From assembly GCA_963832655.1 (NCBI GenBank), contig CAWHUW010000006.1:252403-316402 (forward strand): 64,000 nucleotides of DNA, written 5' to 3'. The stretch comes from an uncultured Thermoleophilia bacterium. GTDB taxonomy: Bacteria > Actinomycetota > Thermoleophilia > UBA2241. The notes under the pieces were generated by a model. That model had not been told where the DNA came from. It made no database searches and saw only the letters and a list, made by a program, of their open reading frames with translations. The translations under genes were made by a program, and so were the position numbers. This document shows positions 19,512-61,967 of this stretch, in pieces. Position 1 is the first letter of the stretch. Every line of letters begins with the position of its first letter.

Positions 19512-19532
19512 GTGCTCGCGGGCAGCACGTCA

Positions 19533-21638: not shown

Positions 21639-23176
21639 TCAGCCGTGCTCCACGACCTGCGTGCCCTGCTTCGTGTCGCGGACCTCGAAGCCGGCCGCCT
21701 GAAGCGCGTCGCGGACCTCGTCGGCGCGCGCCCAGTCCTTCTCGGCGCGGAAGTGGTCGCGCAGCGCGCAGGCGTAGGTCGCGTCGCCACAGGCGAGCCG
21801 CTCCCCGGAGAGCGAGTTCGAGGTCCGCCCAGCGGCCCTCGCCGGCCAGGCGAGCCGCCGGCGGCAGAGTCACGTTCTCGGTCGTGCAGGTCTGGTCGGC
21901 GCCCGCCTCGCCCTCGCCGCTGCCGCTCCGGCATGCCGATGAGCAGCGTCTCGAGACCGTCGACGATGGCGTCCTCGACCTCCTCGAGCACCGTCGACGT
22001 CGACCGCCGCGCCGACCGCGTCGGCGGCGCCGACGTAGCGGAACAGACCACGCGCCAGAGCGAACAGCTCACCGAGCGCGCCGGCGGTGTTGAGGTCGTC
22101 GTCCATGTGCTCGGCGAAGGCGCTGCGCGCCGCCTCCACGGCGGCGCACAGCTCGGCCGCCGGCAGCGGGTCGCCCTCACCGGGATGGTCGATACGGAAG
22201 TGCGCCGTGCGCACCGCCTCGACCAGGCGGTCGTGCGCCGCCTTCGCCTCGTCGAGCTTCTCGACCGAGAACTCCAGCGGGCTGCGGTAGTGCGTCGTCA
22301 GGAAGTACATGAGCACCACGGCCGGCGGAGTACCTGTCGAGCACCTCGCGCAGGAGGAAGATGTTGCCGACCGACTTGGCCATCTTCTCGCCGCCGGAGC
22401 GGATCATGCCGTTGTGCATCCAGACGCGCGCGAAGGGCAGACCGGCGGCCTCGCTCTGCGCGATCTCGTTCTCGTGATGCGGGAAGATGAGGTCGCGCCC
22501 GCCGCCGTGGATGTCGAAGCCGGCCCCGAGGTAGCGCAGACCCATCGCCGAGCACTCGATGTGCCAGCCGGGGCGGCCCATGCCCCACGGGCTCTCCCAG
22601 GCAGGCTCCCCGGGCTTGGCCGCCTTCCAGATCGCGAAGTCGAGCGGGTCCTCCTTGCCGGGCTCGCCCTCGACCCGTGCGCCCTCCTCGAGATCCTCGA
22701 TGCGCTGGCCGGAGAGCTTGCCGTACCCGGCGAAGCTGCGCACACGGAAGTAGACGCTGCCCTGCGCCTCGTAGGCGTGACCCGACGGAGGTCAGCTGGC
22801 AGCACAGGTCGACGATCTCGGGGATCGTCTCGGTGGCGAGCGGCTCGACGTCGGGGCGCAGCTCGTCGCCGAGCCGCCCCATGTCCTCGTGATAGGCGGC
22901 CGTGAACTCGCTCGGCGACCTCGGCGGAGGTGCGCCCTTCGGCGTTCGCAGCGTTGATGATCTTGTCGTCGACGTCGGTGATGTTCTCGACGAGGGTCAC
23001 GTCGTACCCGCGGCGCCGCAGCCACGAGCGCAGGACGGCGAACGTGACGTAAGGCCGCGCGTTGCCGACGTGCACGAGGTTGTAGACCGTGGGGCCGCAG
23101 CAGTAGATACCGGCCTTGCCCTCCTCGCGGGGGACGAAGTCCTCCTTCGATCGGGTGAGCGAGTTGTAGAGGCGGA

Positions 23177-23180
<4 letters not shown>
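21639..23180 (-). CDS. cysS: cysteine--tRNA ligase, frame broken at >=6 places
   Basis: GTG at 23180 (GTGA overlap with the gltX stop). Fragments [33 protein letters not shown] (22404..23180), [49 protein letters not shown] (22177..23743 frame set) and [13 protein letters not shown] (21870..22319). C-terminal end [16 protein letters not shown] by hand. Confidence 0.8.
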
Positions 23181-24699
<1,519 letters not shown>

Positions 24700-33339: not shown

Positions 33340-34435
33340 GTGCGCAACCTTACCCTCGGTGATCGCGGCAGAGAAGTCTCGGACGTGCAGAAGCGCCTGC
33401 GCGCCCAGGGCTTCGTGCTCGGCAACGAGGGCGTCGACGGCTTCTACGGCCCCCACACGCGAGCTCGCCGTGTGCGCCTTTCAGCAGCGCCGCGACCTGC
33501 TGGTCGACGGCGAGGTCGGCGACAACACGTGGCGCGAGCTGGTCGAGACCGGGTACACGCTCGGCGACCGCCTCCTCTACCTGCGCGAGCCGCAGTTCCG
33601 CGGCGACGACGTCCTCGCCCTGCAGGTCAAGCTCAACCTGCTCGGCTTCAACGCAGGTCCCGAGCGCGGCGTCCACGACGAGGACGTCGAGCGGGCCGTC
33701 CTCGACTTCCAGCGCAACGCGGGGCTTGTCGCCGACGGCATCGTCGGACCGACGACCCTGCGACAAGCTCAGAGCGTTGCGCAAGGCCGAGTCGGGCCGC
33801 GAAGGCAAGAAGATCCCCGACCGCCACGGCGGCTACGTCGAGGCGCGCGACCCTGGCGGGGCAGGTGGTCGCCGTTGGACCCCGGCCATGGCGGCGCCGA
33901 CAGTGGCGTCGTGTCGGCGCGCGGCGTCGCCGAGAAGGACGTCGACGCTGACCGTGGCCCGGCGGCTGGAGGAGCTGCTGCGCGCCGAAGGCTGCCAGGT
34001 CGTCGCTGACCCGCACCGGCGACAGGGACGTGCCTCTCTACGAGCGGACCGAGACGGTCTTGGCCGCCGACGCCGACTTCATGTTCTCGCTGCACGCGAA
34101 CGGCCACGAGTCGCCGGCGGCGACGGGCGCCGCGTGCTACTTCTTTCAGCGCAGCCACTACTTCTCGGAACACGGACACCGGCTGGCGCAGCACGTCGGC
34201 GCCCGCCTCGCCGCGCTGGGGACACCGCTTCCTCGGCAGCTTCGGGCGCAACTACGGCATCCTGCGCGAGCCGCGTGCGATCGGCGCTGCTCGTCGAACC
34301 GGTGTTCCTGAGCAGCCCGGCGGACGAGGCTGGGCCGCGAGAGCGGACTTCGACGACCGCGTCGCCGCGGCGATCGCGCCGGGCTGGCCTCGTACCTGCA
34401 GCGGGCGCCGCTCGGACGGGGACGATGCCGTGTGA
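33340..34435 (+). CDS. peptidoglycan-binding-domain N-acetylmuramoyl-L-alanine amidase, multiple frame breaks
   Basis: GTG at 33340. Two PG_binding_1-like repeats: GDRGREVSDVQKRLRAQGF..VDGFYGP and GDDVLALQVKLNLLGF..VADGIVGPTT. Amidase_3 segments follow: VVAVDPGHGGADSG, ADADFMFSLHAN, NYGILREPRA. The TGA overlaps the pylS GTG. Confidence 0.65.
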
Positions 34436-35287
34436 GCCCCGACGCGCCCGACGTGATGAGGCTGACGCCGACGCAGATCCAGCGCCTGCGCGAGCTCGGC
34501 GCCGATCCGGCGCAGCTGGACGAGGACTTCCCGACGGCGGCGGCGCGCGACACCGCCTTCAAGAAGCTCGAGGAGGACTTCGTGCGCGCCGGCAGGGCGC
34601 AGCTCGACGAGCTGCGCCGGACCCGGCGCGCGCCCCGACTGCTCGAGCTCGAGGCGGCGCTGCGCGCCGCCCTCATCGACGCGGGCTTCGTCGAGGTCGT
34701 GACGCCGCACATCATCGCCGGCGAGGCGCTGGCGAAGATGGGCGTCGGGCACGGCCACCCGCTGCGCGAGCAGGTCTTCTGGCTCGAGGACGGAGCCTGC
34801 CTGCGGCCCATGCTGGCCCCGAACCTCTACACGCTCCTGCGCAAGCTCGGCCGCATCTGGAGCCGGCCCTTCGGGATCTTCGAGATCGGCACGTGCTTTC
34901 GCCGCGACAGCAAGGGCAGCCAGCACCTGAACGAGTTCACGATGCTCAACCTCGTCGAGCTCGGGCTGCCCCGGGAGGCGTGCCGGCCGCGCCTCGACGA
35001 GCTCGCCGAGCTCGTCGTGCACGGCGGCAGGCATCGAGGAGTACCAGCTCGTGCGCACGGTGTCGGAGGTCTACGGCGAGATGCTCGACGTGGAGGTCGA
35101 CGGGCAGGAGGTCTGCTCGGCCGCGGTCGGCCCTCTCCCCATGGACGACAACTGGGGCATCGTGGAACCATGGGTCGGGCTCGGCTTCGGCCTCGAGCGC
35201 CTCCTCATGGCGCGCGAGGGGTACCCCAACATCGAGCGCGCCGGCCGCAGCCTCACCTACGTCGACGGCATCCGCCTGAACATCTGA
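34432..35287 (+). CDS. pylS: pyrrolysine--tRNA(Pyl) ligase, catalytic C-terminal-type protein (bacterial split PylSc), one frame break near 35020
   Basis: ORF 34432..35385 gives LRPMLAPNLYTLLRKLGRIWSRPFGIFEIGTCFRRDSKGSQHLNEFTMLNLVELG. Frame +1 (ORF 35051..35287, open from ~35021) gives AAGIEEYQLVRTVSEVYGEMLDVEVDG..VGPLPMDDNWGIVEPWVGLGFGLERLLMAREG..RSLTYVDGIRLNI. Both blocks match remembered PylS sequences of Methanosarcina and Desulfitobacterium nearly motif for motif. Confidence 0.9.
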
Positions 35288-35333: not shown

Positions 35334-35984
35334 TCAGGGCAGCCTGGCCGCCTTCACGATCAGCTTGGCGTCGAGCCATGCCTGACCGCCCGGCTCCGTC
35401 ACGTGCGCGAGAAGCTCGCGCACGCGGGCGGCCGTCTCTCCCTCGCACCGGGTGCATGACAACCACTCAGCGAAGACGTGACGGCGCGGGTGCTGCGCCA
35501 GGTCGACGACCCGGAGCCCCGCTGCCGAGAGCATCGCGACCCACTCCGTCTTCGTGTAGGCGCGCACGTGCGTCACGTCGCGCAACCGCTCGGCCTCTTC
35601 CACGCGCTCGTCGTTGTGCAGACCGTCCTCGATCACCACGAGGCGACGGCTGACTCGCGCCATCTCTTGGACGGCACCGGCCGGGTCATCGAAGTGGTGC
35701 GCGGCGAGGCGGCAGACGACGACGTCGAAGGACCGGTCCGCGAAGGGCAGCGCCTCGGCCGGGCAGACGACGTCGGGCTCCATGCCGGCGGAGGCGTCGC
35801 ACGTCGTCACCGTGCAGCCGCGCTCACGCAGGCGCCGCGCGACGTGACCCCCGCCCGTGGCGACGTCGAGCGCCGTCACGCCCTGCACCGGCTCGCACCA
35901 CTCGACCACGAGGTCGAGGTCGGCGCCGGCGCGATGCACGGCGCTGCGCTCGTACGCCTCGCGGCGCTCGTCCCACTCGTTCAC
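35334..35984 (-). CDS. class I SAM-dependent methyltransferase (Methyltransf_11-like)
   Basis: ORF 35334..35984, GTG start. ALDVATGGGHVARRL (motif I) and FDVVVCRLAAHHF. Confidence 0.75.
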   Translation of the reverse strand: MNEWDERREAYERSAVHRAGADLDLVVEWCEPVQGVTALDVATGGGHVARRLRERGCTVTTCDASAGMEPDVVCPAEALPFADRSFDVVVCRLAAHHFDDPAGAVQEMARVSRRLVVIEDGLHNDERVEEAERLRDVTHVRAYTKTEWVAMLSAAGLRVVDLAQHPRRHVFAEWLSCTRCEGETAARVRELLAHVTEPGGQAWLDAKLIVKAARLP

Positions 35985-36130: not shown

Positions 36131-36769
36131 CTACTTGCCCAGCAGCGCGTCGATCTTCTTGACGCCGTCGTTGGCGTCCTCGGCGTAGGCGTCGGCGCCG
36201 ATCTGGTCGGCCCAGCGCTGGGTGGCGGGAGCGCCGCCCACCACGGTCTTGAAGGAGAGGCCCTCGTCCTTGATGACCTTGATGACCTTCTTCTGCTCCT
36301 CCATCGTCGTCGTCAGCAGAGCGCTCATGCCGATGATGTCGGCGTTCCCTTCCTTGGCCTTGGCGATGAAGGTCTGCGCGGGGACGTCGCGGCCCAGGTC
36401 GGTGACCTCGTAGCCGTTGGCCTTGAGGTAGGCGATCACGATCGCCTTGCCGATGTCGTGCACGTCGCCCTGCACGGTGCCGATGACGACGCGCCCCTTG
36501 GTGGTCGCCGCGCCGGCCTCGAGGGCGGCGTTGGTGACCTCGGTCGCCCCCGCCATCGCGTCGGCGGCCATCATCAGCTCGGGGAGGAACATCTCGCCGC
36601 TCTCGAAGAGCTCGCCGACCTCCTGGATGCCCTTCACGAAGCCGTTCTGCATGATGTCGGCTGGGGTCATGCCCGCGGCCAACGCACGCTTGGCGATGTC
36701 TTCGGCGGCCGCGCGGTCGGCGTTGACGATCGCCTCGCTGGCTTCCTGGTAGAGCTCTTCGTTCCCCAT
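36131..36769 (-). CDS. corrinoid (cobalamin-binding) methyltransferase-partner protein (MtbC/MttC/MtmC-like)
   Basis: ORF 36131..36811; ATG at 36769 after GGGAGGAG. FVKGIQEVGELFESGEMFLPELMMAADAM, B12-binding motif GTVQGDVHDIGKAIV, MSALLTTTM, VGGAP. TAG stop. Confidence 0.9.
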   Translation of the reverse strand: MGNEELYQEASEAIVNADRAAAEDIAKRALAAGMTPADIMQNGFVKGIQEVGELFESGEMFLPELMMAADAMAGATEVTNAALEAGAATTKGRVVIGTVQGDVHDIGKAIVIAYLKANGYEVTDLGRDVPAQTFIAKAKEGNADIIGMSALLTTTMEEQKKVIKVIKDEGLSFKTVVGGAPATQRWADQIGADAYAEDANDGVKKIDALLGK

Positions 36770-36917
36770 GGCCTCGCACTCCTCCCAACGTCGTTCGCAG
36801 CCGTAGATCATACTGCAGCCGTCGCCGACGACCTCGCTCGCGGCAGGGCAAGGCTTTCATCCGATTGGATGACTGTCAAGGACGAGCCGCCGCGCACGCC
36901 TCTGCTAGACTCGGGCC

Positions 36918-37797
36918 ATGAGGTATCACGGCGCCGTCATCCGACCCCCGAGCGAGGCCACCAGCCTCATCCTGCAGGTGACCTACGGGTGCTCCAACAA
37001 CACCTGCGACTTCTGCGGGACGTACCTGGACAAGCCGTTCGCGGTCCGGCCGTTCGGCGAGGTCGCCGAGGACGTGACCGGGCTTCCGGCGGCGGTCAAG
37101 GCGCGCGCCCAGCGCGTCTTTCTCGCCGACGGCGATGCGCTCGCGCTGTCGGCCCGCCGGCTGCTCGAGATCCTCGACCTGCTGCACGCGGAGCTCCCCA
37201 ACCTCGAGCGCGTGAGCTCGTACGCCAACGCGAAGAACCTGCTCGACATGCAGGTCGACGAGCTGCGCCAGCTCAGCGAGCGGGGGCTCGACCTCCTGTA
37301 CCTCGGGCTCGAGTCGGGCGACGACCAGACGCTCGCCGCCATCCACAAGGGCATGACGGTGAGCCGAGCAGGTCGAGGGCTGCCGGCGGGCGAAGGCGGC
37401 CGGCATGAAGCTCTCGGTCACGGCGATCCTCGGCCTCGCCGGCACCGCCCGCTCTCTCGAGCACGGGCGGGCGACGGGCGAGGCCCTCTCGGCCATCGAC
37501 CCCGCCTACATCGGCATCCTCACCCTCATGCTCGTGCCGGGCACGGGCATGCACCACAAGGTCGAGAGCGGCGAGATCGCGCTGCCGGACTCCGTCGGCA
37601 TGCTGCGGGAGCTTCGCGAGATCGTCGCCCACACGGACGTCACCGACTGCCTCTTCCGCTCGAACCATGCCTCCAACTACCTGCCCGTCGGCGGCCGCCT
37701 GCCACAGGACAAGGCGGCCATGCTGACGCGGCTCGACAAGGTGCTCCAGGCGCCCGAGGCCGTGCAGTTGCGGCCCGAGACCTGGCGCGCCCTCTAG
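36918..37797 (+). CDS. radical SAM protein (Cx4Cx2C cluster motif), one frame break near 37360
   Basis: ORF 36918..37916 gives MRYHGAVIRPPSEATSLILQVTYGCSNNTCDFCGTY..FLADGDAL..YLGLESGDD. It continues in the ORF 37405..37797 frame (open from 37363): AEQVEGCRRAKAAGMKLSVTAILGLAG..LTLMLVPGT..FRSNHASNY. TAG stop. Confidence 0.8.
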
Positions 37798-38480: not shown

Positions 38481-38825
38481 TCAGCCCGCCGGCATGTCCT
38501 CGTCCCTGAGGAACGAGCCGTAGTCGCGGCGGAACTTCGTCGCCGCGTACTTCTGCAGCTTCCACTCGGGGATGCGGCACTGCGGACAGGCCTCGATGAA
38601 CCACTTGTTGCGCAGCCAGCGGGCGGAGCGGCTGGTCTTCGAATCGCGAACGACCATGCGCTTGCCGCAATGCGTGATGACGATCGCGTGCAGGCCGCGA
38701 GGCTCGAAGTCGCGCACCCCGTGCAGGATACCGCGACGCGACGGCCAGAGCTTCATCTTCTCGACCAGGCGGAAGAGAGGCACCTGCTTGCGGTAGTAGC
38801 GCGCCTTGTTCGGGTCGGTGGGCAT
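38481..38825 (-). CDS. pylSn: pyrrolysyl-tRNA synthetase N-terminal domain protein (PylSn, tRNA(Pyl)-binding)
   Basis: ORF 38481..38825: KLWPSRRGILHGVRDFEPRGLHAIVITHCGKRMVVRDSKTSRSARWLRNKWFIEACPQCRIPEWKLQKY. This aligns with the M. mazei PylS N-terminus [61 protein letters not shown] (LW.SR.G..H, CG, VV..S..SR.AR.LR, C..CR). Confidence 0.85.
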   Translation of the reverse strand: MPTDPNKARYYRKQVPLFRLVEKMKLWPSRRGILHGVRDFEPRGLHAIVITHCGKRMVVRDSKTSRSARWLRNKWFIEACPQCRIPEWKLQKYAATKFRRDYGSFLRDEDMPAG

Positions 38826-40609: not shown

Positions 40610-41509
40610 ATGAAACGTGCCGGCATCGTCGTCGCCGCCCTGGCCATCCCGGTAGCCGTCGTCCTCGCTCTCGCCTTTGGCCTCGCCTCCTGCGGCGACG
40701 ACGGGACCGCTGGACCCACGCCGACCAAGACGGTGACCGTCACGGCGACCCCTTCCGCCTCGCCGTCGCCCTCCCCAAGCCCGACGGGGACGATGACGGT
40801 CTCCATCTACCTCATGCGCGGCGAGACGCTGGGCGTCGCCCACCGCGAGGTGCCGGCCTCCGTCGCCGTGGCGAAGGCGGCGATGACCGCGCTGCTCCAA
40901 GGGCCGAACGCGCGCGAGAAGGCCGCCGGCCTGACCACGACGATCCCCGCCGGCACGACGCTCAACGAGGTGACGATCGAGGACGGCACGGCGCGCGTGG
41001 ACCTGAGCGACGACTTCGCGAGCGGTGGCGGTTCGCTCTCGATGCAGGCACGGGTCGCCCAGGTCGTCTATACGCTCACGCAGTTCAGGACGGTCAATCG
41101 CGTCGACTTCTGGATCGACGGCGGGCTCGTCGAGACGCTCGGGGGCGAAGGGCTCGACCTGAGCGCCGGACAGACCCGCGCCGACTGGGAGGAGATGCTG
41201 CCGGCGATCTTCGTCGAGACGCCGGCCGTCGGCGACGTCATCACCGGCTCTCGCCTCGCCGTCCGCGGCAGCGCCTCCGTGTTCGAGGCGACCTTCGTGG
41301 TCGAAGTCCTCGGCGCCGACGGTGCGATCGTCGCCGACAAGACGGTGACCGCCACGGAGGGCGCCCCGGGGCGCGGCGTCTTCGCGGTACGCCTCGGCCT
41401 GCCGCCGATGAGCGGCAAGGGCAAGCTGGTCGCCTACGAGGTCTCGATGGAGGACGGCTCGCGCATGAACCAGGTGAGGATCCCGCTGCGCTTCGCCGTC
41501 GAGGACTGA
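40610..41509 (+). CDS. GerMN-domain plus Gmad2-like Ig-domain lipoprotein
   Basis: In ORF 40511..41509; ATG at 40610 after GAGGGAGAG. Signal plus lipobox LALAFGLASCGDD, then VSIYLMRGE..ALLQGPN..GLTTTIPAGT..VDLS.. (GerMN), then IFVETPAVGDVITG..VRGSASVFEATF. Confidence 0.7.
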   Translation: MKRAGIVVAALAIPVAVVLALAFGLASCGDDGTAGPTPTKTVTVTATPSASPSPSPSPTGTMTVSIYLMRGETLGVAHREVPASVAVAKAAMTALLQGPNAREKAAGLTTTIPAGTTLNEVTIEDGTARVDLSDDFASGGGSLSMQARVAQVVYTLTQFRTVNRVDFWIDGGLVETLGGEGLDLSAGQTRADWEEMLPAIFVETPAVGDVITGSRLAVRGSASVFEATFVVEVLGADGAIVADKTVTATEGAPGRGVFAVRLGLPPMSGKGKLVAYEVSMEDGSRMNQVRIPLRFAVED

Positions 41510-41528
41510 CGGCGGGCGAGAGGACGGC

Positions 41529-41601
41529 TGGCGGGGACTGCGGGAGTCACACCCGCCTGCGTGGGTTTAGAGCCCACGCTGATCCTTTCGATCGAGCCCC
41601 C
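41529..41601 (-). tRNA. pylT: tRNA-Pyl (anticodon CUA), CCA encoded
   Basis: The minus strand reads GGGGGCT C GATC GAAAG GATC AG CGTGGG CTCTAAA CCCACG CAG GCGGG TGTGACT CCCGC AGTCCCC G CCA. Features: 7-bp acceptor stem (one G-U pair), a single nucleotide between the acceptor and D stems, 5-nt D loop without GG, 6(-7)-bp anticodon stem, CUCUAAA loop, 3-nt variable loop, T loop without TTC, and G73 discriminator. Confidence 0.92.
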
Positions 41602-41764
41602 GCGCCGACGACGATGATACCTCCGTCACGGCCGCGCCGCTCCTGGAACTGGCAGAGCAGCGGCGCGTCGGGATAGAGTTGCGCATCACCCGGCGCCGCC
41701 GTATGCCACTCGACGTGCGGTGTCGACGACGATCTCACGGCCACTCACACGAACGGGGGTACTC

Positions 41765-42811
41765 ATGGGCAAGGGACTGAGCTGGGCCCTGACCATCATC
41801 GGCGTCCTGCTGCTCGCCGCCGGGCTCGTCCTCATGCTGGCGATCGTGCCCGGCATGAAGAAGATGCCGGCCGACACCGACACGACGCGAGACTACGAGG
41901 GCACCATGGTGGTGTTGCTGAACCCGGCCGACTTCACCTTCCAGAAGATGCTGCCCATCACCCTCCAGCGGCACTTCGCCGTCACGGAGACCGACGGTGA
42001 CCTCGCCCTTGTGAAGGAAGAGAAGACCATGATGACCGGCAGCACGCCGCTCCAGCAGGTCGTCACCAACTACGCCGTCGACCGGGTCACCATGCTGGCC
42101 ACGGACCAATACCCCGAGGAGTGGGCGACGAGCGAGGGCTTCATCCCGCGCGAGGGCATCGTGCTGAGCTGGCCGATGGACACCGAGCAGAAGGACTACA
42201 CGGGCTGGAGCGACGACTACATGAGCACCGTGCCGCTCACTTTCGCCGAGGAAGCCACGCACGAGCGCAGCGGCATGACGCTCTACAAGTTCACGTCCAG
42301 CAGCGACCCGAAGCCCATCGTCCCCGAGATGGTGACGGCCATGGGCCTGCCGACCGAGCTGCCCAAGGCGCAGGTCCAGCAACTCCTCGGGCAGATCGAC
42401 CTGTCGGCGCTGCCCGGCGACGTCCTGACGACGCTGTTCGCGAAGCTGCCGGACCCGGTGCCGCTGGGCTACTACTACGGCTATGACGGCACCTACTGGA
42501 TCGACCCCGCGACGGGGATCATCGTGGACGTCGAGAAGACCGAGAAGCGCAGCGTGTCCCTCAGCCCCGACCTCCTCGAAGGCACGCCGCTGGCGCTGCT
42601 TCCGGAGGACCAGATGGCGGTGCTCCGGGTCCCGGTCTCGGACTTCAAGTACACCGCCACCGACGCCTCGGTCGAGGCCGCAAAGACCGACGCCGAGGAC
42701 GGGGCGAGCAAGCTTCAGCTCTACGGCACGACGCTGCCGTGGATCGGGATCATCGCCGGCGCCGTGCTGCTGGTGATCGGCCTCGTCCTGATGAGGCGCA
42801 AGACGGCCTGA
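41765..42811 (+). CDS. DUF3068 (PorA-like) membrane protein with N- and C-terminal TM helices
   Basis: In ORF 41720..42811; ATG at 41765. GKGLSWALTIIGVLLLAAGLVLMLAIVP at the N-terminus and WIGIIAGAVLLVIGLVLMRRK at the C-terminus. Family assignment is from general resemblance only. Confidence 0.55.
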   Translation: MGKGLSWALTIIGVLLLAAGLVLMLAIVPGMKKMPADTDTTRDYEGTMVVLLNPADFTFQKMLPITLQRHFAVTETDGDLALVKEEKTMMTGSTPLQQVVTNYAVDRVTMLATDQYPEEWATSEGFIPREGIVLSWPMDTEQKDYTGWSDDYMSTVPLTFAEEATHERSGMTLYKFTSSSDPKPIVPEMVTAMGLPTELPKAQVQQLLGQIDLSALPGDVLTTLFAKLPDPVPLGYYYGYDGTYWIDPATGIIVDVEKTEKRSVSLSPDLLEGTPLALLPEDQMAVLRVPVSDFKYTATDASVEAAKTDAEDGASKLQLYGTTLPWIGIIAGAVLLVIGLVLMRRKTA

Positions 42812-42925: not shown

Positions 42926-43810
42926 TCAGGCGAGCGCCCGTGCCGCCATGACGGCGACGCCGACCGCGAGAGGGTCGTGGATGTGACGCGGCCCCAGCGC
43001 GGCGCGAGCACCGGCGTCGAGCGCCGGAGGCACCCCCGGCGCCGCGACGATGGCGCCCGGGCAAAGGTCGCCGGCGGTGACGATGTCGGCCACCGGTGTC
43101 GCGTCGAAGAGCAGGTCGCAGCGTGCGAGCCCATCCGCCAGGTCGGTGCGGGCGAACGGGAGTCCGTCGGCCGTCGCCCTCGCCACGGCACCATCGTCGG
43201 GGTCCACGGCGAGCAGGTCGGCGCCCATGGCCGTCAGGCGCCGGCCGGCGGCGCGGCCGACCGGACCGAGGCCGAGCAGCAGGACGGACCGGCCGGCGAG
43301 ACCGCCGGCCGCCGCCGCGAGCGCCGTGACGTACCCGTCGGCCGTCGCCGGGTCGTCGTCGACGCACAGACCCGTGTGGATGTTCAGCGCGATGAACCGG
43401 AAGTCGTCGGCGACGAAGACGACTTCGTCACCCCCTTCGGCCGCCGCCTGCAGACCACGCACGTCGGGCTGCGTCGTGACGTGGGCGTCGCACCCCAGGT
43501 GCCGAAGGATCGTGACGACGCACTCGCAGAAGCCGGGGATGAAGCCCTCGCCGCTGCTCACCGGCACGGCGGCGACGCGGGCGCCGGCGAAGGGCACTGC
43601 TGTCGTCGGCGCCGCCCCTGGCAAGACCGTCGCGTCTGAGCGCTCCGCTCGTGACGCCAGCGCACGGTCGACGTCCACCGTGCGTTGAGCGAGTCCGAGG
43701 AGCGTGAGACCGCAGACCGCGACGAGATCGCGCTCGAACGCGCCGAGGCGCGCGCTCAGCTCCCGGACGTCGTGCTCGGTCAACCTGGTCACCGCGTCAC
43801 CGTCCTTCAC
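42926..43810 (-). CDS. pylD: pyrrolysine biosynthesis dehydrogenase PylD
   Basis: ORF 42926..43810: VAAVPVSSGEGFIPGF, VVFVADDFRFIALN, Rossmann motif LLLGLGPVGRAAG, FDATP, VAAPGVP. These parallel the Methanosarcina PylD blocks VGIVPVTSGNGIIGNF, ILMADDRTFLAHN, VVGLGKVG, FEATP, STPGIP. Confidence 0.85.
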   Translation of the reverse strand: MKDGDAVTRLTEHDVRELSARLGAFERDLVAVCGLTLLGLAQRTVDVDRALASRAERSDATVLPGAAPTTAVPFAGARVAAVPVSSGEGFIPGFCECVVTILRHLGCDAHVTTQPDVRGLQAAAEGGDEVVFVADDFRFIALNIHTGLCVDDDPATADGYVTALAAAAGGLAGRSVLLLGLGPVGRAAGRRLTAMGADLLAVDPDDGAVARATADGLPFARTDLADGLARCDLLFDATPVADIVTAGDLCPGAIVAAPGVPPALDAGARAALGPRHIHDPLAVGVAVMAARALA

Positions 43811-43852: not shown

Positions 43853-45070
43853 TCACAGAGTCTCACCCTCAGGGAGAACTTCAAGGTTCTCCTCCGCGGC
43901 CAGCGCGGCGACCACGTCGTCTGCCGTGCGCTGCGCCTCGGCCACGCTCGCTCCCAGTGTGATCAGCGTCGCCGACCACGCTGACCGCCCCGGTCCGTAG
44001 TCGGTCAGCGCCTCGTGGGCACCGAAGAACCCGGGCGCCAAGGTGAGCGGCCGGGCGCCGCCCATGACGTGCTCGCCCGCGACCGCCAGCCTGCCGTCTT
44101 GTGCGTGGACGTGCTGATAGACGCAGGCTCTCGAAGACGTCCTGTCGACCTTCGGCGGACGGCCGTCGGCGATCGTACGCCGCAGCAGCTCGACGATGTT
44201 GAGACCGCTCGACCAGTAGACCGCCGTCGGGGTCTGGCTCGGCAGCCGGGCGTCGATCTCCAGCACCTTGGGCTGCGCCTCGTGGACCATCACTTCGACG
44301 TCCATGAGCCCACGTAGGCCAAGACTTTCCGCGAGCCGCACGGATACCGCGTCGAACGCTTCGAGAACGCCAGGCGCCACGGCCTGCCCCCACGCCTCGC
44401 CCGTGACGCGCTCGTCGGCGGGCGTCGCGCCGGCGGCCTCGCTGACCGGGGCGACGACACGCCGGCAGTCGTAATCGGCGTCGAACTCGAGCCCGGTGAC
44501 CTGCAGGGGCACGGCGTGGCCGTCCCAGCAGAGCACCTCGAGCGAGAGCGACGGGCCGGCGACGTACTCCTCGACTATGGCGTCGTGCCCCTCGGCCTCG
44601 AGCGCGGCGCGCGCCGCGGCGAGCTCATGCTCGTCGGCGGCGAGCCGCACGCCCTCGCTGCCGCTCGCGGCGCTGGGCTTGACGACCACCGGGAACGCAC
44701 AGCCGGGCCACGGTATCGGTCGCGGCACATCAAGCCGCGCGAAGAGCTCGTTCGAGGCGAGCTTGGAGGAGGTCACCGCATACGCGGCGAGGTCGAAGAG
44801 CAGCGGCACGTCCCAACGCGGCACGTGCGCGTCGAGCCAGGCGAGCGTGGCGTCGTCCTCGCAGGCGGGCAGCACGGCGTCGCAGGTGTCCAGCACGGCG
44901 CGGCTCCGCGCCTCGTCGGCGGTCACGTCCATGACCACGTGGACGTCGGCGAGGCCGGCGGCCGGCGGTGCCTCGCGACGGTCGATCAGGACCGTCTCGT
45001 ACCCCGCCTTGGCGGCGAGGTAGACGGCCTCCGTCCCCTGCAGCTTGCCGCCGACGATCGCCAGCCTCAC
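43853..45070 (-). CDS. pylC: pyrrolysine biosynthesis ATP-grasp ligase PylC
   Basis: ORF 43853..45184. GTG at 45070 after GGGGGAG, overlapping the upstream TGA (GTGA). VRLAIVGGKLQGTEAVYLAAKAGYETVLID, VVVKPSAASGSEGV, SLEVL, MDVEV, EIDARLPSQTPTAVYWSSGLNIVELL matches remembered PylC (EIDARFPSQTPTVVYYSSGINLIELL). Confidence 0.88.
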   Translation of the reverse strand: MRLAIVGGKLQGTEAVYLAAKAGYETVLIDRREAPPAAGLADVHVVMDVTADEARSRAVLDTCDAVLPACEDDATLAWLDAHVPRWDVPLLFDLAAYAVTSSKLASNELFARLDVPRPIPWPGCAFPVVVKPSAASGSEGVRLAADEHELAAARAALEAEGHDAIVEEYVAGPSLSLEVLCWDGHAVPLQVTGLEFDADYDCRRVVAPVSEAAGATPADERVTGEAWGQAVAPGVLEAFDAVSVRLAESLGLRGLMDVEVMVHEAQPKVLEIDARLPSQTPTAVYWSSGLNIVELLRRTIADGRPPKVDRTSSRACVYQHVHAQDGRLAVAGEHVMGGARPLTLAPGFFGAHEALTDYGPGRSAWSATLITLGASVAEAQRTADDVVAALAAEENLEVLPEGETL

Positions 45071-45300
45071 GTCGACTCCCCCGTCCGCGGCGGAGCGGCG
45101 GCGCCGGCGACGCGCAGACGCTCCAGCGTCTCTCGGTAGGCCGCGACCCCGGCCGGGCGCAGGCCGCGACGCTCGAGGGCGCACACCCCCAGCCGCGCGC
45201 CTTCCAGCGCGGCCGCGCAGAGTGCGCGCACGGTCTCCCTCGACGGTGTCGTCTGCATGTCCGTCTGTCCGAGCATCACGTCAGCGGCGATCGCGTCGGC
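45067..45300 (-). pseudogene. short ORF translationally coupled to pylC; possible 3' remnant of pylB
   Basis: Tail of ORF 45067..45447 downstream of the nitroreductase stop: ..ADAIAADVMLGQTDMQTTPSRETVRALCAAALEGARLGVCALERRGLRPAGVAAYRETLERL... The stretch LERRGLRPAGVAAYRETL resembles the PylB C-terminal LEIMGMKPARQADFEAVL of Methanosarcina. No radical SAM core is present. Confidence 0.3.
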
Positions 45301-45307
45301 GACCGGC

Positions 45308-46021
45308 TCAGCGCCAGTCGAGCACCTCGTCAAGGGGGCGCCGTCCGCTGCGCCGCGGGCGCCCGGCGGATCGCCCGATCGGGACCAGCGCCGCGAGACG
45401 AGCATCGGCCGGCGCGCCGAGGAGTCCTTCGAGCGCCGGCGCCGCAAGCACCGGCGCCGTCATCCAGCACGACCCGTACCCCATCGCGTGTGCCGCCGTG
45501 ACGAGCAGCTGCACGGCGGCGCCGATACTCTGCAGGTCGGGTCGCTGACGGACGCGGTCCCTCTCATCGGTCGAGAGGCCGCGCGCCGCGAGCAGCTCAT
45601 CGCTGCGCGACGAATACGGCGTCGCGAACACCGCGATCACCACGGGGGCCTCGGCGAAGAACGTCGCGTACGCGCGGATCGCGCGGATGTCGCGTCCGCG
45701 CCCCTGGCACTCCGGCAGGCCGGCCATGACGTCGAGTGCGGCGTGGACCGCCTCCGCCATCTCGCGCCGCAGCGCCTCGTCCTGGACAGCGACGAACCGC
45801 CACGGCTGGGAGTTGCCGGCGTTGGCGGCGCGCACGGCGAGCGCGACCATGGCCTCGATGTCTGCGCGGGGTACCGGGTCGGGAAGGAAGCGGCGGACGC
45901 TGCAGCGTTCCTCCACAGTCGCCGCGAAGCTCGCCTGGCTCAGACGCTCGCGCGCGTCGGAGGCATCACCGGGGACCGCGGGCAGCCGTCCGTCGCTGGT
46001 CTCGTCGCGTCTCCTCGGCAT
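45308..46021 (-). CDS. nitroreductase family flavoprotein
   Basis: In ORF 45308..46303; ATG at 46021. RCSVRRFLPDPVPRADIEAMVALAVRAANAGNSQPWRFVAV .. GAAVQLLVTAAHAMGYGSCWM. Confidence 0.8.
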   Translation of the reverse strand: MPRRRDETSDGRLPAVPGDASDARERLSQASFAATVEERCSVRRFLPDPVPRADIEAMVALAVRAANAGNSQPWRFVAVQDEALRREMAEAVHAALDVMAGLPECQGRGRDIRAIRAYATFFAEAPVVIAVFATPYSSRSDELLAARGLSTDERDRVRQRPDLQSIGAAVQLLVTAAHAMGYGSCWMTAPVLAAPALEGLLGAPADARLAALVPIGRSAGRPRRSGRRPLDEVLDWR

Positions 46022-46372: not shown

Positions 46373-46870
46373 TTACGCCTGCAGCTCCTTGTCCATCTTG
46401 TCGACCTTGAGGTCGACGGCGAGGACGTGGGGGTTCTGGCAGAAGGCGATGCACTGGGGCTCGCCGTCGCAGAGGTCGCACTTGAAGGCGACCTCGCGGT
46501 CGGGGTGCTCGTGGATGACGTCGGTGGGACAGACGTCGTAGCACTCGCCGCAGTTGGTGCAGAGGTCGTCGACGACGACGAGCACGTAGCCCTTGACGGT
46601 GTCGCCGAGCTTCTCGCGGCCGGCGAAGTCGCCCTTGACCTTGACGGTGATCTCCTTCGTCACGATGGCGTCGTTGGGGCAGGCCTCCTGGCACTTGGCG
46701 CAGCCGGTCTGCAGGCAGGTGTGGCCCTTGATGGCGCCCGTGGTCGGGTTGACCTCCGCCCAGAGCCGCGCGACGCTGGGACGGAAGGCGCCCTCGTGGT
46801 AGGCGCTGCAGGCGAGCTCGCACTGGTGGCAGCCGGTGCACTTCTTGCTTGAGATCATCACGTGGGGCAT
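46373..46870 (-). CDS. 4Fe-4S dicluster ferredoxin-domain protein (AOR-associated electron transfer subunit)
   Basis: ORF 46373..46870. Cys motifs: CTGCHQCELAC, CAKCQEACP, CTNCGECYDVCP, CDLCDGEPQC. TAA stop. Confidence 0.8.
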   Translation of the reverse strand: MPHVMISSKKCTGCHQCELACSAYHEGAFRPSVARLWAEVNPTTGAIKGHTCLQTGCAKCQEACPNDAIVTKEITVKVKGDFAGREKLGDTVKGYVLVVVDDLCTNCGECYDVCPTDVIHEHPDREVAFKCDLCDGEPQCIAFCQNPHVLAVDLKVDKMDKELQA

Positions 46871-46901: not shown

Positions 46902-48707
46902 CTAGAGGCGCACGTCGACGCCGAGCTCGGCGAGCTTGGCCTCGGTCGGGACGCCGTTCTCGTCCCAGCCGCGCAGGGCGTAGTACTTCTGGATCGACTC
47001 GTGGAAGAGGTCGTCGCCCACGACCTTGCCGGCGGACGGACCCTCGGTGTGGGCGACCTCGTACAGCTTCTTCGGCAGGTCGTCCTTCTCCACGCCCTCG
47101 CGCAGGTTGAAGAGACGGGCGAGGTTCCAGATGCGCTCGCCCATCGTCATGACCTCCTCCTCGGCGACGTCGCGCCCGAGCACCAGCGGGAACATGACGG
47201 TGAGCTGCTCGGGGGTGACGGCCCAGAAGTCGCACCAGATGCCGCTGAACTTGATCGAGCTGAAGTTCTGCCCGATGAAGCCGTTCGCCGTGTTGCCGGC
47301 GATGATCTGCTCGACCTTGCCCTCCATCGTGTCGGCCGGCAGCGTGCCCGCGGCGAGCTCGTCGCCCGGCGGGAAGGCCCGCATGTGGCAGCCGCCCCGG
47401 TCGCTGGTCGCGTAGCTGATGGCGCTGCCGAACGAGCCGCGCGGGTCGTAGCCCGGCACCTCCAGTCCCTTGACCTGGATGGCGAGCTCAGGATGGCCGT
47501 ACTGGGCGGCGAGCGCTCTTGTGCCCTTGGCAAGGTCGGCGCCGATGCCCTCGCGCTTCGCGATGAGCGTCGGCGCCGCGACGTAGCCCTCGACCTCGCC
47601 GAAGTGCAGACCGAAGTCCTTGATGCCCTTTTCGGTCATGTCCATGGCGAGACCCACGACGGCGCCCGAGGAGATCGTGTCGAGGCCGAGCTCGTCGCAG
47701 AGCTCGTTGAACTTCATCAGCGCGTCGATGTCGTCGATGCCGCAGTTCGCCCCGCAGAGGGCGATGGTCTCGTACTCGGGGCCCTCGCCGTGCACCTCGG
47801 CGCCGGCGAACGTGGTGACGTGGAAGTTGCGGCAGCTGATCGAGCATTGGTAGCAGCCGCGCTTCTTCAGGCGGATCTTCTGAAAGGCCTCGGAGTTGAT
47901 CTTCTCGGCGCCCTCGAACTCGCCCGCCGACCAGTTGCGGGTCGGCAGCGCGCCGCCGCCGTTGACCACGTCGACCAGGGTCGGCGTGCCCTCCTCGTGA
48001 GCCCACATGTTGTCGTCGGTCAGCACGTAGTCGGTGTGTATCTTGTAGAGCAGGTCGAGGAAGGCCTTGGCGTCGCCGACCGGGACGCTGCCGGTGCCGC
48101 GCACTACGACCGCCTTGAGGTTCTTGTCGCCCATGAGGGCGCCGTGACCCGCCCGGCCGGCCTTGTGGTACTGGTCGGTGGAGATGCAGGCGAAGGCGAC
48201 CTTGTGCTCGCCGGCCGGCCCGATCGAGAGCGTCTTGGCGTTCTTGTCGACGTCCTGGCGCATGGCCTCCTCGATCTCGGAGGTCTTCATGCCCCAGTAC
48301 TTGGCGGCGGGCATGAACTCGACGACGTCATCCTTGATGACGACGATCGTCGGCTCCGCCGCCTTGCCTTTGATGATCACCGCGTCGTACCCGGCGAACT
48401 TGAGCTCGGGGGCGAACGATCCGCCGACGTAGCTGTCGTTGAGGATGCCGGTGATCGGGCTCTTGCAGCCCACCACGAGGCGCGACGCGGTGCTGACCGT
48501 CGTGCCGGCGAACGGGCCCGTCATGAGGATGAGCGGAGCCTGCGGGGACCACGGGTCCATCTTCGGCTCCACCTCCTCCCACAAGTACCTCAGAAGGAGG
48601 CCCTTGCCACCGAGGTACTTCTCGGCCCACGCCATGTTGAGCGGCTCGACGGCGGTGGTGCCGGCGCTCAGGTCGATCCTGAGCACTCTGCCCTTGTAGA
48701 AGTCCAA
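46902..48707 (-). CDS. aor: aldehyde:ferredoxin oxidoreductase (tungstopterin AOR family)
   Basis: ORF 46902..48761. TTG at 48707, 5 nt after AGGAGG. Colinear with remembered P. furiosus AOR: GGKGL, GPFAGT, SPITG, LKFAGYDA, GPAGE, KAGRAGHGALMG, CYQCSISC, GPEYET, CDELGLDT, YATSDRGGCH. TAG stop. Confidence 0.9.
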   Translation of the reverse strand: MDFYKGRVLRIDLSAGTTAVEPLNMAWAEKYLGGKGLLLRYLWEEVEPKMDPWSPQAPLILMTGPFAGTTVSTASRLVVGCKSPITGILNDSYVGGSFAPELKFAGYDAVIIKGKAAEPTIVVIKDDVVEFMPAAKYWGMKTSEIEEAMRQDVDKNAKTLSIGPAGEHKVAFACISTDQYHKAGRAGHGALMGDKNLKAVVVRGTGSVPVGDAKAFLDLLYKIHTDYVLTDDNMWAHEEGTPTLVDVVNGGGALPTRNWSAGEFEGAEKINSEAFQKIRLKKRGCYQCSISCRNFHVTTFAGAEVHGEGPEYETIALCGANCGIDDIDALMKFNELCDELGLDTISSGAVVGLAMDMTEKGIKDFGLHFGEVEGYVAAPTLIAKREGIGADLAKGTRALAAQYGHPELAIQVKGLEVPGYDPRGSFGSAISYATSDRGGCHMRAFPPGDELAAGTLPADTMEGKVEQIIAGNTANGFIGQNFSSIKFSGIWCDFWAVTPEQLTVMFPLVLGRDVAEEEVMTMGERIWNLARLFNLREGVEKDDLPKKLYEVAHTEGPSAGKVVGDDLFHESIQKYYALRGWDENGVPTEAKLAELGVDVRL

Positions 48708-51353: not shown

Positions 51354-52615
51354 CTAGAGCAGCTCGCGTGGGTCACGGATGGCGCCGGCGATCGCCGTCG
51401 CGGCGGCCGTCGCCGGTGATGCGAGATAGATGGACGCCTCGGGGTTGCCCATGCGTCCCTTGAAGTTGCGGTTCGCGGTGCTGACGCAGACCTCGCCGTC
51501 ACCGAGGATGCCTTCGTGGATGCCGACGCAGGCGCCGCACCCGGGGTTGGTCACCACGGCGCCGGCCTCCCAGAAGACCTCGAGCAGGCCCTCACGCGCG
51601 GCGGCTCGGACGACGTCGCGCGAGGCGGGCGTCACGATGAGACGGGTGGATGGCGCGCGGCGGCGCCCGCGCAGCACGTCCGCCGCCGCGCGCAGGTCCT
51701 CGAGGCGTCCGTTGGTGCACGTCCCGATCAGCACCTGGTCGACGCGCACGTCGCCGAGCGATCCAGCCGGAGCGACGTTGTCGACGGCGTGCGGACGCGC
51801 CACCGTCGGCACGACGGCGGCGGCGTCGAAGGGGGCGACGCGCGCGCAGGCGGCACCGGGGTCGGCCGCGAGAGGCCGCCAGTCGGCCTCGCGGCCCTGC
51901 GCGGCGAGAAAGGCGCGCGTCGTCTCGTCGCTGGCGATGAGGCCGGCCTTGGCGCCGGTCTCGACGGCCATGTTCGCGAGCGTGAGCCGGCCGGCCATGC
52001 CGAGGGCATCGATGGCCGGCCCGCCGAACTCGAGCGCCTGGTACGTCGCGCCGTCGGCGCCAAGCGCGCCGATGATGCGTCAGCATGAGGTCCTTGGCGG
52101 CGACGCCCTCGGTCGAGCGCGCCGGCTACCTCGACACGCACCGTCTCGGGCACGCGCAACCAGGTCTTGCCGCTCACCATGCCGACCGCGACGTCGGTGG
52201 AGCCCATGCCGGTCGCGAAGGCGGCGAGCGCCCCCGCAGTGCACGTGTGCGAGTCGGCGCCGATCACGAGGTCGCCGGGCTTGGCGTAGCTCTCGGCGAC
52301 GCGCTGATGACAGATGCCCATCTCGACGTCGGAAAGCGTCGCTCCGGACTCGGCGCAGAAGGCGCGGATCGTGCGCTGCGCGTTGGCGAGCTCGCTGCGC
52401 GGGGCCGGCGCCGCGTGATCGATGAAGAACACGCACGTCGGCGCCTTGACCCGCGCCGCGCCGAGCTCCTCGATCTGCTGGATCGCGAGGGGACCCGGTC
52501 CCGTCCTGGGCGATGCGCCACGTCGACGTCGGCGACGACGATCTGACCAGGCACGACGGCGTCGAGGCCGGCGTGCGCGGCGATGCAGCTTCTCGGCGAG
52601 GGTGAGGCCGCTCAC
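51354..52615 (-). CDS. leuC: 3-isopropylmalate/(homo)aconitate hydratase large subunit (LeuC-like), several frame breaks
   Basis: GTG at 52615 overlaps the upstream stop (GTGA). FIDHAAPAP..GICHQRVAESYAKPGDLVIGADSHTCTAGALAAFATGMG (51728..52915 frame). ORF 51354..51998: RLTLANMAVETGAKAG..IGTCTNGR..NPGCGACVG..STANRNFKGRMG. TAG stop. Confidence 0.8.
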
Positions 52616-53919: not shown

Positions 53920-55405
53920 CTACCCGTCCAGCGCCTTGCGCAGGAGCTCGTTGACGAGCTTGGGGTTGGCGCGGCCGCCGGTCACCTTCATCACCTGTCC
54001 GACGAGATACCCGATGACCTGCTGCTTGCCGCCGCGGTACTGCTCGACCTGGGCCGGATTGCCGGCGACGACCTCGGCGACGGCCGCCTCGAGCTGCGCG
54101 CTGTCGGAGATCTGGCCGAGCCCGTGGCTCTCGACGATCGCCTCGGGCTCGGCCCGCTCGGCGATCATCTTCGCGAACACGTCCTTGGCGGCGCTCGTGG
54201 ACACAGCCCCGTCGGCCACCAGTCGAACGAGCTTCGCGAGGCGCTCCGGGGTCACGTGGCCGTGGCCGGGCTCGAGGCCGGCGGCGTTGAGGTGGGCGAG
54301 GTACTCGCCCATCGTCCAGTTGGCGGCCAGCTTGGGGTCGACGCCCTGGGCGACGACCCCCTCGTAGAAGCGCGCCAGAGCGCCGGCCCCGCCGAGCACG
54401 ACGGCATCGGCGCGCGAGAGCCCGTATTGCTCCGTGAAGCGGGCGATGCGCGCGCCGGGCAGCTCGGGCAGGCCGGCGCGCACGCTCTCGACCCAGTCCG
54501 GGTCCATCACCAGCGGCACCAGATCGGGCTCGGGGAAGTAGCGGTAGTCGTGCGCCTCCTCCTTGGAGCGCAGCGGTGTCGTCGTGCCGGTCGCGGGATC
54601 GAAGTGGAGGGTCTCCTGGTCGATCCTGCCGCCGGCCTCGAGGATCTCGACCTGGCGCGGCAGCTCGCTCTCGAGGGCCTGCTGCAGGTAGCGGAAGCTG
54701 TTCATGTTCTTGAGCTCGGTGCGCGTGCCGAGCTCGGCGCTGCCCGACCGGGCGGACGCTGATGTTGGCGTCCCAGCGCACCTGGCCCTCCTCCATGTTG
54801 CACTCGCTCACGCCGAGCTCGATCACGAGGTCGCGGAGCTGCTGGAGGAACTCGCGCGCCGCCGCCGGCGAGGGGATGTCGGGCTCGCTGACGATCTCGA
54901 TCAGCGGCGTGCCGCCGCGATTGAAGTCGACGACCGAGTAGTCCGAGCCGGCGATGCGGCCGGTCTCGCCGCCGGCGTGGACCAGCTTGGCGGCGTCCTC
55001 CTCCATGTGCACACGGCTGATGCGGCAGCGCAGCTTCTCGTCGCCGGCCCAGTACTCGAACCAGCCGTCCACGGCGAGCGGCTCGTCGAACTGCGAGATC
55101 TGGTACGCCTTCGGGAGGTCGGGATAGAAGTAGTTCTTGCGGTGGAACACGTTGCGCGGCCGCACCGTGCAGTTGAGCGCCAGCGCGATGCGCGTCGCGT
55201 ACTCGACGGCGCGCTGGTTGACGACGGGCAGCGCGCCCGGGTGCGCGAGGCAGACCGGGCAGGTGTGCGTGTTCGGCGGGTCGCCCTTGGTCACCGCGCA
55301 GGCGCAGAACATCTTCGTCGCGGTGTCGAGCTCGACGTGGACCTCGAGGCCGATCACCGGCTCCCAGGCGCGGGTCGTGCCTTGCAGGACCGCCGTCGTG
55401 CCCAT
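53920..55405 (-). CDS. gatB: Asp-tRNA(Asn)/Glu-tRNA(Gln) amidotransferase subunit B, one frame break near 54745
   Basis: N-terminal half in the ORF 53882..56500 frame: WEPVIGLEVHVEL..CPVCLAHPGALPV..FHRKNYFYPDLPKAYQISQ..MEEDAAK..DFNRGGTPLIEIV. C-terminal half in ORF 53920..54705: MNSFRYLQ..YRYFPEPDL... TAG stop. Confidence 0.85.
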
Positions 55406-61899: not shown

Positions 61900-61967
61900 T
61901 GACACTCTCCAGTTGTGGTGAGGGTGGCAGGAGCGGCAGCTCCCGCCCCCGTTGGGCCCAGCTCAGA

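Follow-up and report, generated by a model that had tools for sequence, protein, structure and literature searches.

Evidence for a tRNA-Pyl gene and a pyl cluster with a deleted pylB in an uncultured Thermoleophilia actinobacterium

The closest described counterparts of the locus reported here are the pyrrolysine systems of D. hafniense and of Methanosarcina mazei and M. barkeri. In Methanosarcina the PylRS is a fused protein, whereas in D. hafniense the synthetase is split over two genes of a cluster with the compact order pylT-Sc-B-C-D-Sn. For the actinobacterial phylum, Guo et al. 2022 (J Biol Chem, PMC9630628) list PylRS genes in 'two Actinobacteria'. There is also an artificial system, E. 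coli engineered with pylTSCD and supplied with D-ornithine, in which PylC and PylD make desmethylpyrrolysine from D-ornithine and lysine and PylRS loads tRNA-Pyl (PMC11467909). The element in question here is a 73-nucleotide (nt) sequence, GGGGGCUCGAUCGAAAGGAUCAGCGUGGGCUCUAAACCCACGCAGGCGGGUGUGACUCCCGCAGUCCCCGCCA, found at 41529-41601 on the minus strand of a 64-kb stretch of DNA (64,000 nt, hereafter the window) from an uncultured Thermoleophilia actinobacterium. An earlier note had taken this sequence to be the gene for tRNA-Pyl (pylT). As a whole, the evidence is best explained if it is very probably a genuine tRNA-Pyl, the UAG-reading suppressor of the pyrrolysine system.

The tRNA gene and its cloverleaf

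ARAGORN calls a tRNA-Pyl (cta) at exactly these coordinates on the minus strand, the only tRNA in the window. This call by a tRNA finder, a Pyl-specific covariance model and the covariation with other pylT genes all support the identification. The minimum free energy and centroid structures given by ViennaRNA are both the cloverleaf (-38.9 kcal/mol, z -4.13), and none of 200 shuffled sequences was equally stable. Each of the cloverleaf features listed in the earlier note, as well as its TATCAT hexamer upstream, can be read in the sequence. For comparison a PylD-based scan with one genome per species gave 62 loci (denoted by L numbers), nearly all of them from metagenome-assembled genomes (MAGs) of uncultured Thermoleophilia; L061, from Actinomycetota bacterium Soudan_30, is distant.

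The criteria for membership were taken from Herring et al. 2007 (PMC1851642), a 2020 review of non-canonical tRNAs (PMC7609411) and the printed M. mazei pylT (PMC5980078). The acceptor stem has 7 base pairs (bp), with G1:C72 and a wobble G5.U68, and it is separated from the D stem by C8 alone, in agreement with the single-nt spacer of Herring et al. 2007 (PMC1851642). The D stem is GAUC/GAUC (4 bp) and the D loop is GAAAG, without G18G19; related genes have GGAAG, GCAAG or GTAAG, with 5 nt in every case. The anticodon loop CUCUAAA (7 nt, with U33 and A37) is invariant across 57 of 57 homologues, and it is closed by an anticodon stem CGUGGG/CCCACG of 6 bp, four of which covary, with an optional seventh G:C pair. 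In the covariance-model alignment to Methanosarcina the variable loop is CAG (3 nt), and it becomes AG (2 nt) if the seventh pair forms; the sequence alone is compatible with either loop and does not decide between them. The T stem is GCGGG/CCCGC (G51:C63) and the T loop UGUGACU (U54, G55, U56, G57, A58), in which U54.A58 and a purine at 57, the T-loop criteria of the same authors, are kept and T-Psi-C is absent.

Both G73 and G1:C72 occur in the window pylT. The latter is invariant within the clade, and a U73 discriminator was found only in L061 among the pylT genes compared. These two are the universal identity elements. The gene also has those of secondary rank listed in PMC1851642 and PMC7609411, namely G10:C25 and A11:U24 for D. 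hafniense and G51:C63 for M. barkeri, for which U33 and A37 count as well. Thus all of the published hallmarks and identity elements were found except the base at position 8, which is a C, nearly invariant in the clade, and neither the G8 that is an element for D. hafniense PylSc nor the U8 of Methanosarcina. As G8/U8 is a pair-specific and not a universal element, a gene with C8 is a variant that can still belong to the family.

The resemblance to the D. hafniense tRNA extends over G73, G1:C72, G10:C25, A11:U24, G5.U68, U54.A58, purine 57, the 1-nt spacer between acceptor and D stems, the 5-nt D loop and the lack of G18G19 and T-Psi-C. With the tRNAs of M. mazei and M. barkeri the window gene shares the GAUC/GAUC D stem, the CUCUAAA loop, the CAG variable loop, G51:C63, U33, A37, G73 and the encoded CCA. 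It differs from them in C8 instead of U8, in other acceptor and T-loop sequences and in length (73 vs 72 nt), owing to one extra nt between the D and anticodon stems. According to the model this nt is an A behind the D stem; the G that follows it can pair with the C of CAG, giving the seventh anticodon-stem pair. As in D. hafniense (PDB 2ZNI, 3DSQ) and unlike the fused PylRS of Methanosarcina, the synthetase of the window is split over two genes. PylSc aligns end to end with D. hafniense PylSc, which is its closest solved structure (PDB 3DSQ/2ZNI, E 5e-93), and the two arginines reported to read G8 are kept, whereas the acidic residues adjacent to them are replaced (E141K, E143G). These replacements would be compatible with a changed contact, and are only suggestive of it.

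Several observations weigh against this identification. The generic tRNA model of Rfam (RF00005, gathering threshold 29 bits) gives no match at 41529-41601, even at E<=10. As for the complete pyl set, the window contains pylT, pylSn, pylC, pylD and, after removing one base, pylSc; pylB is not among them, having been deleted in the window population. The base in question is one extra G at 35019 relative to L001, which splits pylSc over two frames (+1 to +2). In addition, the window contains neither a PYLIS match (Rfam) nor a homologue of mtmB, mtbB or mttB (tblastn with the L061 genes), and no credible gene with an in-frame UAG was found in the window or in 60 related loci.

The miss by RF00005 could be expected if the fold were a chance cloverleaf, or the tRNA an amber suppressor unrelated to pyrrolysine. 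However, RF00005 also misses the pylT genes that lie beside pylS in three Methanosarcina genomes (L065-L067) and the pylT of L061, whereas tRNA-Gly and tRNA-Cys of L061, which are ordinary tRNAs, reach 64-71 bits with it. The generic model is therefore blind to the tRNA-Pyl class, and its silence was rejected as evidence against a tRNA. To this extent the earlier statement that generic finders often miss the class holds; it does not hold for ARAGORN, which reports tRNA-Pyl in 55 of the 60 related loci and finds the window gene and the genuine Methanosarcina pylT genes alike. A Pyl-specific model (R1) was built from the three Methanosarcina genes and the L061 gene, so that no sequence of the window clade entered it, and was run with filters off. 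It matches 41529-41601 on the minus strand over model positions 1-72 of 72 with 72.3 bits and an E-value of 6.8e-18, which is rough as the calibration was shortened and the effective sequences few. The next match in the 128 kb searched reaches 16.7 bits, and this gap is decisive. A model dominated by Methanosarcina sequences recognizes the window tRNA with 72 bits.

The helices were further examined in an alignment of 57 pylT genes (18 distinct). In the cloverleaf register 99.0% of the cells are paired, vs 37-56% in slid registers, and changes on both sides were seen in 10 of the 23 pairs, with at least one such pair in each of the four helices. The covariation score is 0.266 vs 0.115 in shuffled alignments, none of 500 reaching it, and at most 0.083 when slid by 1-3 columns; the shuffle control overstates significance because the sequences are kin, a weakness that affects neither the slid registers nor the number of pairs changed on both sides. 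Even between the window and L002, compensatory exchanges are seen at two pairs of the anticodon stem and two of the T stem. The seventh anticodon-stem pair can form in every distinct sequence (G:U in 9, G:C in 8, A:U in 1). The earlier note had staked its claim on a covariance model supporting the fold and on covariation of the quoted helices with bona fide pylT genes, and on both counts the fold is upheld. A chance cloverleaf or an unrelated suppressor has next to no probability and is effectively refuted by the R1 score, the compensatory changes in all helices, the linkage to pylS, pylC and pylD in ~55 genomes and the PylRS identity elements, in place except at position 8.

One recurrent mismatch was observed in the family. 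The pylT genes of L013, L020, L022, L028, L030, L042 and L046 carry a C.A mismatch in the anticodon stem (C26/A40), the sole recurrent non-pair of the family (alignment columns 26 and 40).

Transcription of pylT

The TATCAT hexamer that the earlier note had described as -10-like is present (Table 1) and is invariant in the window, L001 and L002 despite diverging flanks. It belongs to a wider element: of 59 distinct upstream regions, 56 contain a TAnnnT whose end lies 8-13 nt ahead of the mature pylT 5' end, where 0.9 would be expected from shuffles. The variants found are TACAAT (31), TATGAT (8), TAGAAT (7), TATCAT (6), TAGGAT (3) and TAGTAT (1). No convincing -35 had been recognized before, and indeed none is conserved upstream of pylT in the relatives, nor did a simple sigma-70 scan give a match. 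Actinobacterial promoters usually lack such a conserved -35. An extended (TGn) -10 was also considered and is unsupported, being present in 2 of 59 regions.

The earlier note had left two options for transcription, a promoter of its own or read-through from pylC-pylD, antisense to the PorA/DUF3068 gene that lies between pylD and pylT in the window. Read-through would be in keeping with the location of pylT on the same strand as pylCD, merely 50-150 nt past pylD in most relatives, and with the lack of both a -35 and a simple sigma-70 match. It does not account for an element that 56 of 59 relatives have at a fixed distance, where chance would give 0.9, and that is kept both where pylT stands directly behind pylD and where a 1.1-kb gene on the opposite strand intervenes. 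Moreover, in the window such a transcript would have to cross the convergent PorA/DUF3068 gene. Read-through as the sole source of pylT is thus quite improbable, and of the two options the first is favoured. The fixed spacing of TAnnnT argues for a promoter of its own, a point that appears largely settled from sequence conservation, with a predicted transcription start that would leave a leader of a few nt.

Two further elements were noted in the vicinity. Just downstream of pylT, at 41494-41514, a hairpin of 7 bp (CGCCGTC/GACGGCG) with a 7-nt loop overlaps the stop of a convergent Germane-domain gene. It has no U-tract and its stem is incomplete in L070, so that a role as terminator is doubtful. 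On the plus strand a TAGAGT hexamer at 41674-41679 lies in the block TAGAGTTGCGCATC, which is conserved in the window, L001 and L002, and would fit a -10 of the divergently transcribed PorA/DUF3068 gene.

The pyl cluster and the deletion in pylB

The genes around pylT are listed in Table 1. The NCBIfam equivalog cut-offs were used for pylB, pylC, pylD, pylSn and pylSc, and pylS was found by tblastn with the M. mazei PylRS, a query 100% identical to database entries.

Table 1. Features of the pyl locus in the window
Feature	Position	Strand	Evidence	Remark
pylSc (catalytic PylRS subunit)	34432..35287	+	TIGR02367, 314 bits repaired (cut-off 178)	match of the repaired protein over the full length; frame broken at 35019
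methyltransferase-cognate corrinoid protein	36131..36811	-	TIGR02370 pyl_corrinoid, 222.6 bits (cut-off 215.3); synteny	
pylSn (small tRNA-binding PylRS subunit)	38481..38825	-	TIGR03912, 120.8 bits (cut-off 51); tblastn to M. mazei PylRS N-terminus	
pylT, tRNA-Pyl gene, anticodon CUA	41529..41601	-	ARAGORN, fold, covariance model, covariation	73 nt including encoded CCA
putative -10 promoter hexamer TATCAT of pylT	41614..41619	-	conservation	ends 12 nt before mature 5' end
PorA/DUF3068 (PgfA-like) membrane protein gene	41765..42811	+	Pfam PF11271, 179 bits	alternative GTG start 41720
pylD (3-methylornithyl-N6-L-lysine dehydrogenase)	42926..43810	-	TIGR03911, 177.5 bits (cut-off 150); PF21455 PylD_N	
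pylC (3-methylornithine--L-lysine ligase)	43853..45070	-	TIGR03909, 353 bits (cut-off 248)	
pylB remnant	45067..45279	-	70-codon open reading frame (ORF)	radical SAM core deleted
nitroreductase-family gene	45308..45916	-	PF00881, 114 bits; synteny in nearly all loci	

The order in the clade is nitroreductase-pylB-pylC-pylD-pylT, then after ~1.1 kb pylSn and after another ~1.1 kb the corrinoid protein and pylSc, the last on the opposite strand. Since this order is common to ~55 species-level Thermoleophilia genomes, it is normal in this lineage for pylT to lie downstream of pylD. Among the loci only L061 has a compact order (pylT-Sn-Sc-B-C-D). The earlier description of pylT as standing alone is correct locally and does not hold for the wider locus, as pylSn and pylSc follow 2.7 and 6.2 kb further on in the conserved order. 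In most relatives pylT comes directly after pylD without an insert; the PorA/DUF3068 gene lies between them only in the window, L001, L002, L038, L040, L045, L048, L052 and L070. Unlike D. hafniense, the cluster thus runs pylBCD-pylT-...-pylSn-...-pylSc with unrelated genes interspersed, and its host differs in phylum, in a GC content of 70% and in the deletion of pylB.

The frameshift in pylSc raises the question of sequence quality. The extra G is absent from L001 and from a second assembly, of a population 98% identical to the window (ena:ERZ25039461:contig_24437), and pylSc is intact in both; in the second assembly it encodes a PylSc of 285 amino acids (P0366) that reads ELVVTAAGIEEYQLV through the frameshift site. 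Compared with L001 the window shows 84 indels in 20 kb, ~1 per 240 nt, and phosphofructokinase, cysS, gltX, gatB, leuC and others are split as well (frame-split regions include 131-1250, 21642-23228, 23723-24596, 51384-52534, 53923-55453 and 60968-61944). L001 in turn has independent breaks in other genes, and many of the relatives are long-read 'MFD' MAGs. The window looks like an unpolished long-read assembly in which no single frameshift can be trusted as biology. As the frameshift is unshared and the sequence rich in indels, an error of the assembly is its likeliest cause; at the very most it would be a change private to this sequence. A pylSc pseudogene was rejected as the default reading for the same reasons, essential genes being split too.

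The deletion in pylB is of a different nature. The remnant joins ~29 N-terminal codons in frame to ~40 C-terminal codons, with ~305 codons lost, and has no radical SAM CxxxCxxC core. The missing part corresponds to positions 7698-8610 of L001 (~0.9 kb of pylB). L001 and L002 have a genuine pylB (TIGR03910, 455 and 430 bits, cut-off 348), flanked by the nitroreductase gene and pylC, and the gene is full-length in every other relative that spans the site, except L005. The junction of the deletion shows a CCGGC microhomology, and the original GTGA overlap of the end of pylB with the start of pylC has been retained, so that the GTG start of pylC overlaps the stop of the remnant. A mis-assembly was considered and rejected, because contig_24437, which is independent and comes from a different sample, encodes exactly the 69-amino-acid product of the remnant ORF; 105 substitutions and 15 indels separate this contig (98% identical) from the window over 6.2 kb, yet the remnant is identical. 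The deletion is evidently a real, inherited allele. Neither this deletion nor the pylSc frameshift had been recognized in the first reading of the sequence.

No other PylB-like sequence was found in the 64-kb window with the verified L001 PylB as query, and the cluster in the window alone cannot make pyrrolysine, since pylB is deleted. With pylB gone and the remaining genes conserved, pyrrolysine or its precursor 3-methyl-D-ornithine must come from elsewhere. In L005 (Thermoleophilia bacterium UBA2241, a short-read MAG) a pylB remnant was found at 8462-8777 with the CRNDCAFC motif kept; its breakpoints are others, so pylB has been lost more than once. This locus has no pylSc at the syntenic site (17300-20912), while its pylC, pylD, pylT and pylSn look intact. 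The independent loss in L005 hints at recurrence within the clade.

Such losses could mean that the locus is a relic, in a population that is losing pyrrolysine decoding and retains an intact-looking pylT that is unused. A pylB deletion common to two independent assemblies, the frameshifted pylSc, the combination of a pylB remnant and missing syntenic pylSc in L005 and the lack of Pyl-using genes in the window would all fit this. The substitutions do not. Summed over pylSc, pylSn, pylC and pylD, the two pylB-deleted assemblies differ by 32 synonymous and 19 non-synonymous changes, giving a ratio of non-synonymous to synonymous rates (dN/dS) of 0.21, against 0.19 in neighbouring genes (odds ratio of pyl genes vs neighbours 1.04). 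The non-synonymous share is 37%, whereas ~74% would be expected under neutrality (P=6e-8), and the test is conservative since sequencing errors push dN/dS towards 1. Moreover, pylT is identical at 73 of 73 positions in the window, L001 and L070, whose flanks are 92-98% identical, and the -10 element is intact; the frameshift in pylSc, as shown above, is unshared in a sequence full of indel errors. A relic is thus an unlikely explanation. The low dN/dS and the identical pylT indicate that purifying selection has continued to act on the other pyl genes after pylB was deleted, and the tRNA gene is read here as part of a maintained system.

Why the genes are maintained may have several explanations. 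A second pylB may exist elsewhere in the genome, 3-methyl-D-ornithine may be taken up, D-ornithine may be converted by PylC and PylD to desmethylpyrrolysine, or the deletion may be too recent for any decay to be visible. It is conceivable, if rather doubtful, that the population runs a naturally pylB-independent pyrrolysine system, in which pylC, pylD, pylSn, pylSc and pylT are kept and fed with 3-methyl-D-ornithine from neighbours or with D-ornithine. The window resembles the engineered E. coli in having pylT, pylS, pylC and pylD without a working pylB; that system, unlike this one, is artificial and receives added D-ornithine, and there is no sign of the same use here. A second pylB elsewhere or uptake of the precursor is at least as likely as the D-ornithine route.

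Some other genes of the locus deserve mention. In ~50 loci a nitroreductase-family gene (BluB/FbiB-like) lies directly upstream of pylB, a synteny that suggests a functional link and has seemingly not been described. Between pylSn and pylSc the window also contains a gene for an S-adenosylmethionine (SAM)-dependent methyltransferase (35334-35984, minus strand) and a frameshifted radical SAM gene (36909-37797, plus strand). The latter was tried as pylB and rejected, as it gives a weak HpnJ-like match and no match to TIGR03910. The position of the corrinoid protein gene between pylSn and pylSc is kept throughout the clade, and no recognisable methylamine methyltransferase partner was found near it. 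Further cobalamin-related genes of the window, at 4390-4926, 7625-8335, 10410-10931 and 15463-16878, comprise a CobO-like adenosyltransferase, a DUF1638-like protein, a truncated or frameshifted second methyltransferase-type corrinoid protein and a B12-binding radical SAM protein.

UAG decoding and significance

The most likely course of events can be put together as follows, with the charging step predicted by homology with D. hafniense. Transcription of pylT would start from its own promoter, with TATCAT 12 nt upstream, and the short leader would presumably be removed by RNase P, the CCA being encoded. The transcript would fold into the compact tRNA-Pyl cloverleaf shown by covariation, and would be charged by a split synthetase of the bacterial type, of which PylSn would contact the T arm together with the short variable loop, and PylSc would read G73, G1:C72 and the D stem. 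The charged tRNA would then decode selected UAG codons. As UAG ends 7 of the 38 well-supported genes in the window, it is still a normal stop.

The candidates for in-frame UAG in the window and the 60 related loci were all rejected, being either shadow ORFs or a TAG stop followed by the next gene in frame. With no client genes in the window, those that use pyrrolysine must lie elsewhere in the genome. When the L061 methylamine methyltransferase genes were used as tblastn queries, L032, L050 and L061 were the only loci with a match, and the main-clade loci had none. The L061 locus (864, 3459, 5215-5286, 13294, 15113) gives strong Rfam matches to PYLIS_1, PYLIS_2 and PYLIS_3, and these sit inside mtmB-, mtbB- and mttB-like genes with an in-frame TAG.

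A particular arrangement of TAG codons was also observed. The aldehyde:ferredoxin oxidoreductase gene of the window ends in TAG (46902-46904), with a ferredoxin gene at 46373-46870, and in nine relatives (L009, L011, L013, L017, L018, L019, L029, L037 and L060, near 6030-6170) the ferredoxin follows this TAG in frame with no other stop between. The same arrangement is seen in ICDH-DUF3467, LeuC-PPIase and radical SAM-membrane protein pairs. These TAGs are probably ordinary stops; read-through by Pyl-tRNA would fuse the proteins.

The window pylT is an ordinary member of the known tRNA-Pyl family and its structural differences are minor. Annotation at NCBI and JGI already names PylD and PylS proteins in Thermoleophilia MAGs, ARAGORN finds the tRNA unaided, and the genes listed by Guo et al. 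2022 mean that the pyrrolysine machinery was already known in the phylum. In the searchable literature pyrrolysine and Thermoleophilia are mentioned together in a single paper, and there incidentally; no paper discussing the trait was found. Whereas Guo et al. 2022 reported two Actinobacteria, the present set holds ~55 Thermoleophilia genomes at species level, with a gene order specific to the clade. Neither this order nor how widely the class carries the trait appears to have been described.

The tRNA adds a high-GC actinobacterial branch to the small set of tRNA-Pyl lineages, characterized by C8, the extra nt that allows a 7-bp anticodon stem, a clade-specific gene order and a conserved, probable promoter of its own. 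Genetic code expansion relies mainly on pairs of PylRS and tRNA-Pyl, for which divergent natural examples are sought as mutually orthogonal parts. With its C8 and the altered contact residues of PylSc, this pair could be of practical interest. The sole unusual aspect is the maintained cluster without pylB, which a second copy of pylB elsewhere would explain trivially. If instead the population is truly independent of pylB and makes desmethylpyrrolysine from D-ornithine, the 22nd amino acid would have a natural variant in this product. For the class as a whole, the ~55 genomes suggest that the use of pyrrolysine, presumably for methylamine metabolism, is common in the little-studied Thermoleophilia.

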